A DNA stretch of 64,000 nucleotides, from assembly GCF_030013205.1 (NCBI RefSeq), contig NZ_CP122648.1. One strand, written 5' to 3'. The DNA is from Escherichia coli (GTDB lineage: Bacteria; Pseudomonadota; Gammaproteobacteria; Enterobacterales; Enterobacteriaceae). This document shows positions 12,301 through 15,300 of the stretch, one piece after another; position 1 is the stretch's first letter; each line of letters begins with the position of its first letter. The position numbers were made by a program.

Positions 12301-15300
12301 TGCCGCTTTTACCCACGGTGCAGAGCGCCGTATTGCCCGCCGGAACGCCGGAAAGTGCCACCGATTTTTTCGGTTTAATGACATGGGTACTGTTTTGCAG
12401 GATCGTTGTGTCGCTCATATTGTCCTCGTCATTTGTAGGGTCGAGATATTTTTCGTTGTGTTTTATTTCACCTGGCTACGGGCAAACAGGTCGTCGAGCT
12501 TCTCTTCGTACTGGTAGTAGTTGATGCTTTCGTACAGCTCGTTGCGGGTCTGCATGGTGTCGATGACGCTTTTCTGCGTGCCTTCCTGGCGCAGGACGTT
12601 GTAGACATGTTCAGCGGCGCGGTTCATGGCGCGGAACGCTGAAAGCGGGTACAGCGCCATTGCGACATGGGCGCTGCGTAATTCGTCGGTGGTAAACAGC
12701 GGCGTGGCACCAAATTCGGTAATGTTGGCGAGGATTGGCACCTGCACCACATCGGCAAACTGGCGGTACATGGCGAGTTCGGTAATCGCCTCCGGGAACA
12801 ACATCTCGGCACCCGCTTCAACATAGGCCTGTGCACGCTCGATCGCCGCATCCAGCCCCTCTACCGCCAGCGCATCGGTGCGCGCCATGATCACAAAATC
12901 AGGATCGGTTTTCGCATCCACCGCCGCGCGGATCCGATCCACCATCTCCTCTTTCGAGACGATCGCTTTGTTCGGGCGATGACCGCAGCGTTTCGCACCA
13001 ACCTGATCTTCAATATGCAATCCTGCCGCACCGGCTTTAATCATCGATTTCACCGTACGCGCCACGTTAAAGGCCGAAGAACCAAAACCGATATCCGCAT
13101 CCACCAGCAGCGGCAGCGAACAAACGTCGGTGATACGGCGAATATCTGTCAGCACGTCATCAAGAGTAGAAATACCGAGATCGGGCAGCCCCAGCGACCC
13201 TGCCGCCACGCCACCGCCGGAGAGATAAATTGCCTGATATCCGGCACGCTGCGCCAACAGCGCATGGTTGGCGTTAATGGTGCCAACAATCTGCAATGGA
13301 TTTTCTTTAGACAGTGCAGCGCGAAACGCTTTACCTGGAGAGTGTAGAGACATAGCCCATCCTTTGTTATCAACTTGTTATTTGCGTTGATAAAGACAAA
13401 GCAAGGGGTGTGCCACAATTGCCTTAATAAAATTAAATGTTTAATTTCAATTTGTTAGCAATATAGTCATGAAGTAATCCACAAATATGCGTTTCAGTTA
13501 ACGTTTCAGGCAATGTTTCACCACGTTTCATTGCAACAATTATGAAACAAGACTAAACCCAATATTCGGTTTCTTAACTTTGCGGTGCGCTATGGCACAT
13601 CCACCACGGCTGAATGACGACAAACCGGTTATCTGGACGGTATCGGTGACGCGCCTGTTCGAGCTGTTTCGCGATATCAGCCTCGAGTTTGATCATCTGG
13701 CGAACATTACCCCTATCCAGCTTGGCTTTGAAAAAGCGGTGACCTACATCCGCAAAAAACTGGCAAACGAACGCTGTGACGCCATCATCGCTGCTGGCTC
13801 TAACGGCGCGTACCTGAAAAGCCGCCTGTCAGTGCCAGTTATTTTGATTAAACCGAGCGGCTACGATGTGTTACAGGCACTGGCAAAAGCCGGAAAACTC
13901 ACCTCTTCTATCGGCGTTGTCACTTATCAGGAAACCATTCCAGCGCTGGTGGCGTTTCAAAAAACCTTTAATTTGCGCCTCGACCAACGTAGCTACATTA
14001 CCGAGGAAGACGCGCGCGGGCAGATTAACGAGCTGAAAGCTAACGGCACCGAAGCGGTGGTCGGCGCGGGGCTGATTACCGATTTGGCAGAAGAAGCCGG
14101 AATGACCGGAATTTTTATCTATTCCGCCGCCACCGTGCGCCAGGCATTCAGCGATGCGCTGGATATGACTCGCATGTCGTTACGCCATAACACTCACGAT
14201 GCCACCCGTAACGCCCTGCGTACTCGTTACGTGCTGGGCGATATGCTCGGTCAATCACCACAGATGGAACAGGTGCGGCAGACTATTTTGCTGTATGCCC
14301 GCTCCAGTGCGGCGGTGTTGATTGAGGGGGAAACGGGGACGGGCAAAGAGCTGGCGGCCCAGGCGATTCATCGGGAATATTTTGCCCGCCACGATGCGCG
14401 ACAGGGCAAAAAGTCGCATCCGTTTGTTGCCGTCAACTGCGGGGCGATTGCCGAATCGCTGCTGGAAGCAGAACTGTTTGGCTATGAGGAAGGGGCGTTT
14501 ACCGGCTCGCGACGCGGAGGTCGTGCCGGACTGTTCGAAATTGCCCACGGCGGTACGCTGTTTCTTGACGAGATAGGCGAAATGCCGCTGCCGTTGCAGA
14601 CCCGGCTGCTGCGGGTGCTGGAAGAAAAAGAGGTCACCCGCGTCGGCGGGCATCAGCCTGTTCCGGTGGATGTGCGAGTCATTAGCGCCACTCACTGCAA
14701 TCTGGAAGAAGATATGCGGCAAGGGCAGTTTCGCCGTGATCTGTTTTATCGGCTGAGTATTTTGCGTCTGCAATTGCCACCACTGCGCGAGCGGGTGACG
14801 GATATTCTGCCGCTGGCGGAAAGCTTTTTGAAAGTGTCTCTGGCGGCGCTCTCCGCCCCGTTTTCTGCCGCATTACGCCAGGGATTACAGGCAAGCGAAA
14901 CCGTGCTGGTGCACTACGACTGGCCGGGCAATATTCGTGAACTGCGCAATATGATGGAGCGACTGGCGCTGTTTTTAAGTGTGGAACCGACGCCGGATTT
15001 AACGCCGCAATTTTTGCAGCTGCTACTGCCGGAACTGGCGCGCGAGTCGGCGAAAATTCCCGCTCCACGCTTACTGACACCACAACAGGCACTGGAGAAA
15101 TTTAAAGGCGATAAAACAGCAGCGGCGAATTATTTAGGCATAAGCCGGACGACGTTCTGGCGGCGGCTGAAAAACTGAACTGCCGAATGCAGCGCGAACG
15201 CTTTATCCGGCATAAATTTCAATAGATGATGATCACCGATAAACTTACGCATCGGGGATGTTTACATAGGATTCAGAATTACTTCTTCTTATAAATATTT

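Follow-up and report, generated by a model that had tools for sequence, protein, structure and literature searches.

A sigma-54-dependent promoter of the propionate catabolism operon prpBCDE in the prpR-prpB spacer of Escherichia coli

A stretch of 64,000 nucleotides from an Escherichia coli genome (contig NZ_CP122648.1; the whole stretch is referred to as the window) was examined in the present study, and the motif GTGGCACACCCCTTGCT located at 13400-13416 on its minus strand is almost certainly prpBp, the PrpR-activated, sigma-54-dependent (-24/-12 class) promoter of the prpBCDE operon for propionate catabolism (2-methylcitrate cycle). This promoter is already known, a textbook feature rather than a discovery, and its activator and its use as the basis of the propionate-inducible pPro expression vectors are likewise established. 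The value of the case is that of a positive control, in which a regulatory element was placed to the base from sequence alone.

Gene content of the prp locus

The minus strand of the window carries the gene order lacYA-cyn-codBA-prpEDCB, with prpR encoded divergently. Scores of PrpB, PrpC, PrpD, PrpE and PrpR are all far over the curated cut-offs of the NCBIfam equivalogs. The genes were located as follows:

7838-13353, minus strand: prpBCDE operon, driven by the promoter (NCBIfam equivalogs and RefSeq annotation of an identical strain)
12463-13353, minus strand: prpB, methylisocitrate lyase (NCBIfam equivalog, 560 bits versus a cut-off of 353)
11249-12418, minus strand: prpC, PrpC (NCBIfam equivalog above cut-off)
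9764-11215, minus strand: prpD, PrpD (NCBIfam equivalog above cut-off)
7838-9724, minus strand: prpE, PrpE (NCBIfam equivalog above cut-off)
6336-7595, minus strand: codB, CodB (NCBIfam equivalog above cut-off)
13592-15178, plus strand: prpR, propionate operon regulator, a sigma-54 AAA+ activator (NF011953, 1010 bits versus a cut-off of 703)

The start codons of prpB (ATG at 13353-13351) and prpR (ATG at 13592) bound a non-coding spacer of 238 nt at 13354-13591, which is exactly the divergent region delimited in the initial annotation of this DNA. The spacer matches that of E. coli strain K_EC180 at 100% identity and that of K-12 MG1655 at 97.5%, and 5218 of the 5426 complete E. coli genomes contain it; gene coordinates in the RefSeq annotation of K_EC180 equal the open reading frames of the window.

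Several further observations were made. Nine of the spacer matches in the E. coli genome set are on records classed as plasmid rather than chromosome. The K_EC180 annotation includes an AllH-family (oxamate carbamoyltransferase subunit) gene broken by an IS1 transposase at window positions 30287-30984, as well as frameshifted pseudogenes for an ABC permease and an ASCH-domain protein (20194-21164 and 23927-24335). In E. coli SCPM-O-B-9504 (NZ_CP144930.1) homology to the spacer is lost 6 nt beyond the -12 element (window approximately 13393/13394). A rearranged segment there has an IS1A copy on either side, prpR is reduced to an N-terminal pseudogene and prpB adjoins an IS1, so that the sigma-54 promoter of this strain is cut off from the prp operon.

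Sequence and position of the promoter core

Direct reading of the minus strand gives TGGCACACCCCTTGCT at 13400-13415, in the context ...aattgTGGCACaccccTTGCTttgtc..., and the segment from 13430 to 13385 reads ...ggcaattgTGGCACaccccTTGCTttgtctttatc.... The initial annotation had described TGGCAC-N5-TTGCT at this position with canonical GG-N10-GC spacing about 45 nt upstream of prpB, and each of these particulars holds: the -24 element TGGCAC has its GG at 13414/13413, the -12 element TTGCT has its GC at 13402/13401, exactly 10 nt separate the two dinucleotides, and 46 nt were counted from the 3' end of the motif to the prpB ATG, on the prpB strand. The core can be summarised as:

13400-13416, minus strand: sigma-54 promoter core GTGGCACACCCCTTGCT (direct reading; 15.1-15.3 bits by position weight matrix, PWM; equal to the published ChIP-seq motif OS01; cores invariant across species)

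It spans -11 to -27 relative to the predicted transcription start (+1, 13389). In two flanking bases it departs from the extended consensus YTGGCACG, with G in place of Y and A in place of G.

Chance expectation of the motif

The pattern TGGCAC-N5-TTGCW occurs once on the two strands of the window, compared with an expected 0.17 matches, and at least one match was obtained in 14 of 100 shuffles; when up to two mismatches were allowed, 36 matches were observed versus 43 expected. A PWM scan, which the initial annotation had suggested as a check, was carried out with a matrix derived from published sigma-54 ChIP-seq sites, namely the 41 of the intergenic-sense class other than prpB (Bonocora et al. 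2015, PMC4591121, Table 1). The site scored 15.1 bits, second among 128,000 window positions, a score that was reached in 124 of 200 random 64-kb sequences, and it ranked tenth in the window with a PWM built from all 134 published sites. Its 15.1-15.3 bits are close to the median of the 41 ChIP-seq sites (15.75). By itself, the motif is not significant at the 64-kb scale. Since neither the exact pattern nor the PWM reaches significance across the window, the argument is carried by context, by conservation and by the occupancy reported in the literature.

These figures bear directly on the reading of the motif as a functionless chance match, for which equal PWM matches in 62-94% of random 64-kb sequences and the shuffles with an exact match both speak. 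Within the 238-nt spacer, however, the observed score was attained on the prpB-directed strand in just 3 of 5000 shuffles, and the nearest competitors were the runner-up on the same strand (10.2 bits) and the best match on the prpR-directed strand (5.0 bits). Together with the conservation and the directly measured occupancy described below, this makes a chance match extremely improbable. The general lesson is that a -24/-12 match needs its context to be convincing, as equally good ones arise by chance in 64 kb.

Two other sigma-54-like sequences were noted in the window. The minus-strand site TTGGCATGTTCATTGCG (964-980), situated at the lacY-lacA junction and antisense to lacA, scored 15.35 and 13.74 bits on two sigma-54 PWMs, at least as high as the prpB site; Bonocora 2015 do not list it among their 135 high-stringency ChIP-seq sites, and it is probably a chance or low-occupancy match. 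The sequence TGGCACA at the prpR start codon (13593-13599) was dismissed as a sigma-54 site, being without a -12 partner.

Conservation across species and strains

A scan of species-representative genomes for PrpR, the output of which was dominated by generic sigma-54 activators matching the FLDEIGEM pattern, recovered 15 full-length orthologues, none of them from Salmonella. The ten loci with a divergent prpB were used for comparison, comprising E. albertii, two Citrobacter, two Photorhabdus, Xanthomonas massiliensis and four Burkholderiales. All ten spacers contain a single strong top match of 14.6-18.7 bits that is directed towards prpB and lies 39-58 nt from its ATG, with runners-up scoring far lower and the top score attained in at most 3 of 5000 shuffles in each case. 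The site is thus in the same place in 11 of 11 species, E. coli included, which argues against a chance origin, as does the invariance of the cores where flanks and spacer drift: in an alignment of Escherichia, Citrobacter and Photorhabdus, TGGCA and TTGCT are invariant and the remaining spacer is 61% identical. GG and GC are invariant in the alignments, and in-element changes among E. coli strains and E. albertii occur only at tolerated positions (ACCCC to ACCCA between the two elements, and TGGCAC to TGGCAT). In 2282 E. coli records, the core and its immediate surroundings, 61 nt in all, match at 100% identity.

The PrpR orthologues of Herbaspirillum and Massilia also have strong upstream sigma-54 sites (17.9 and 17.5 bits; 2256-2272, minus strand, of locus L011 and 74-90, minus strand, of locus L006, respectively), and homologues of prpB, prpC, prpD and prpE were not found within the retrieved flanks of these loci. 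A PrpR-type activator may control another adjacent gene in these genera. In Xanthomonas citri, a PrpR protein has been reported as a repressor of the prp operon; if it is of the sigma-54 type, the activator model is not universal.

Published evidence for sigma-54 binding and function

The window 17-mer is identical to the K-12 ChIP-seq motif OS01 (peak 347850, fold-above-threshold 17, downstream gene prpB), whose predicted start lies 36 bp upstream of prpB (Bonocora et al. 2015, PMC4591121). When genomic SELEX was carried out in vitro with reconstituted RpoN holoenzyme, a peak was obtained at 347864, also in the prpR/prpB spacer (PMC8743547). These direct measurements of sigma-54 occupancy (PMC4591121, PMC8743547) count against a functionless motif. 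The homologous Salmonella site, TGGCATAGCCTTTGCTTT, was positive by ChIP-chip (ratio 11), and Salmonella prpBCDE was expressed 45-fold higher in the wild type than in a delta-rpoN strain when a promiscuous activator was supplied (PMC3844500). The attribution of the site to sigma-54 and PrpR in the initial annotation is therefore supported, by the identities of PrpB and PrpR, by the published K-12 and Salmonella sigma-54 data and by cross-species conservation.

Binding could nonetheless be non-productive or minor, and most prpBCDE transcripts could arise at a different promoter, such as a sigma-70 promoter dependent on CRP at some other point of the spacer. Bonocora 2015 (PMC4591121) emphasise that productive transcription may never occur at many of the sites bound by sigma-54, and the status of the prpB promoter in EcoCyc is 'P', predicted and not confirmed (PMC4591121); in addition, CRP is reported as needed for PprpB activity (PMC5566544), and reviews list PrpR, sigma-54, IHF and CRP as requirements of the prp promoter. 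However, the 45-fold rpoN dependence in Salmonella (PMC3844500), obtained with a promiscuous enhancer-binding protein, conservation of place and orientation beside a sigma-54 activator gene in all 10 other species, and a consensus scan of the spacer in which no sigma-70-like -35/-10 pair was found all weigh against this reading, which we consider very improbable. Genetic dependence on rpoN (ntrA), prpR and ihf comes from Salmonella through secondary citations, including a requirement of Salmonella prpBCDE for IHF (Palacios 2000, as cited in PMC5566544).

Enhancer and spacer upstream of the promoter

The following features were assigned upstream of the sigma-54 promoter core:

13417-13485, unstranded: A+T-rich spacer (22% GC), presumed DNA-bending segment between enhancer and promoter
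13431-13443, 13434-13446 and 13445-13457, unstranded: overlapping IHF-like sites, one mismatch from WATCAANNNNTTR, at -42 to -68
13490-13549, unstranded: presumed PrpR enhancer (upstream activating sequence, UAS) with five GTTTCA/TGAAAC half-sites, -102 to -159 from the predicted +1
13491, 13503, 13515 and 13525, plus strand, and 13543-13548, minus strand: the half-sites, which agree with the half-site known for the PrpR enhancer

For this enhancer the consensus CGTTTCATGAAACG has been published (PMC4987338 Table 1), and the background frequency of the GTTTCA hexamer is 0.7 per kb. Two blocks of the presumed enhancer, TGTTTC...TGTTGCAATGAAAC and ATGAAAC, are invariant from Escherichia to Photorhabdus, and among E. 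coli strains variation in the spacer is greatest in the A+T-rich segment. The choice among the IHF-like sites and the set of half-sites bound by PrpR in E. coli are inferences. The most conserved enhancer block, TGTTGCAATGAAAC, also contains GTTGCAA on the minus strand (13531-13537), which may be a shared recognition element (compare PMC12153269).

A scan of the spacer for terminators found none. The consensus scan for CRP sites gave only a site with three mismatches at 13468-13483, too weak to assign.

Transcription start and prpB leader

The start and leader of prpB were placed as follows:

13389, minus strand: predicted +1, placed 12 nt past the C of the GC and 19 nt past the motif centre (convention of PMC4591121)
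13354-13388, minus strand: prpB 5' leader, with the Shine-Dalgarno sequence AAGGA at 13364-13360

Measured from the predicted +1 the leader is 36 nt, the same as the 'distance 36' published for K-12 (PMC4591121). An exact +1 at 13389 would follow from this convention; a mapped prpB start was not found in the accessible literature, which gives a predicted start only and outside which the primary prp papers lie.

The predicted +1 is spanned by a perfect 8-bp inverted repeat at 13367-13393, TTATCAAC-N11-GTTGATAA, which holds both a perfect IHF consensus, TATCAACTTGTTA (13368-13380, plus strand), and two copies of ATAACAA at an interval of 11 bp. Conservation of the inverted repeat covers Escherichia (E. 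albertii) and Citrobacter, and that of its right arm (ATAACAA) also Photorhabdus; E. coli strain U90 carries a mutated left arm. The repeat is the sole part of the region that the standard model leaves unaccounted for. It might be an unrecognised operator, bound by IHF at a second site or by another protein, that modulates open-complex formation at prpBp or promoter escape, a role that we regard as rather unlikely. An RNA element in the leader was considered and rejected, as an Rfam search of the leader returned no family and a chance match only (E = 0.94) and its predicted RNA fold was no better than those of shuffles (z = 0.57).

Proposed mechanism of activation

In the activation scheme suggested by these features, sigma-54 RNA polymerase would form a stable closed complex on GTGGCACACCCCTTGCT (13400-13416, minus strand), and divergently encoded PrpR would bind the cluster of GTTTCA half-sites approximately 100-160 bp upstream. 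PrpR is presumably activated by 2-methylcitrate, formed from propionate via PrpE and PrpC; the compound is named as a PrpR co-activator in a secondary citation of Palacios and Escalante-Semerena (PMC4987338). An IHF-induced bend in the A+T-rich spacer would aid the DNA looping that brings PrpR to the holoenzyme, ATP hydrolysis by PrpR would open the promoter, and transcription would start near 13389, with 36 nt of leader ahead of the prpB ATG.

Comparison with known systems

A close counterpart outside E. coli is the prpBCDE system of Salmonella enterica, which likewise has divergent prpR and prpBCDE and a sigma-54 site just upstream of prpB. Promoter studies of Salmonella prpBCDE were reportedly published by Horswill and Escalante-Semerena in 1997 and by Palacios and Escalante-Semerena in 2000 and 2004. 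As far as the secondary sources describe it, the Salmonella system has the PrpR enhancer CGTTTCATGAAACG, requires rpoN, prpR and ihf, and uses 2-methylcitrate as co-activator. Its core, TGGCATAGCCTTTGCTTT, differs from that of E. coli in having TGGCAT in place of TGGCAC and another spacer. The enhancers differ as well, the Salmonella one being a single perfect 14-bp palindrome, whereas E. coli has separated or direct GTTTCA half-sites and its best matches to the palindrome contain three mismatches. The Salmonella system is reported to be approximately 3-fold stronger (PMC5566544).

Within E. coli, the sigma-54 promoter of atoDAEB, CTGGCACTCCCCTTGCT, shares 15 of 17 positions with the prpB core GTGGCACACCCCTTGCT, the C-rich spacer included, and has a predicted leader of similar length (35 nt). 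In contrast, it is served by a different activator, the two-component response regulator AtoC, and by a different enhancer. The resemblance between the atoD and prpB sites is mostly at consensus positions and is probably a coincidence that is not meaningful. Both operons, atoDAEB and prpBCDE, serve short-chain fatty acid catabolism.

K-12 prpBp (OS01) equals the promoter of the window in its 17-mer, GTGGCACACCCCTTGCT, in its distance to prpB and in its flanking genes. The two 238-nt spacers are separated by six substitutions, all outside the -24/-12 core and most in the A+T-rich segment, and there is no functional difference to report. The arrangement of enhancer, bend and promoter is the classic sigma-54 layout.
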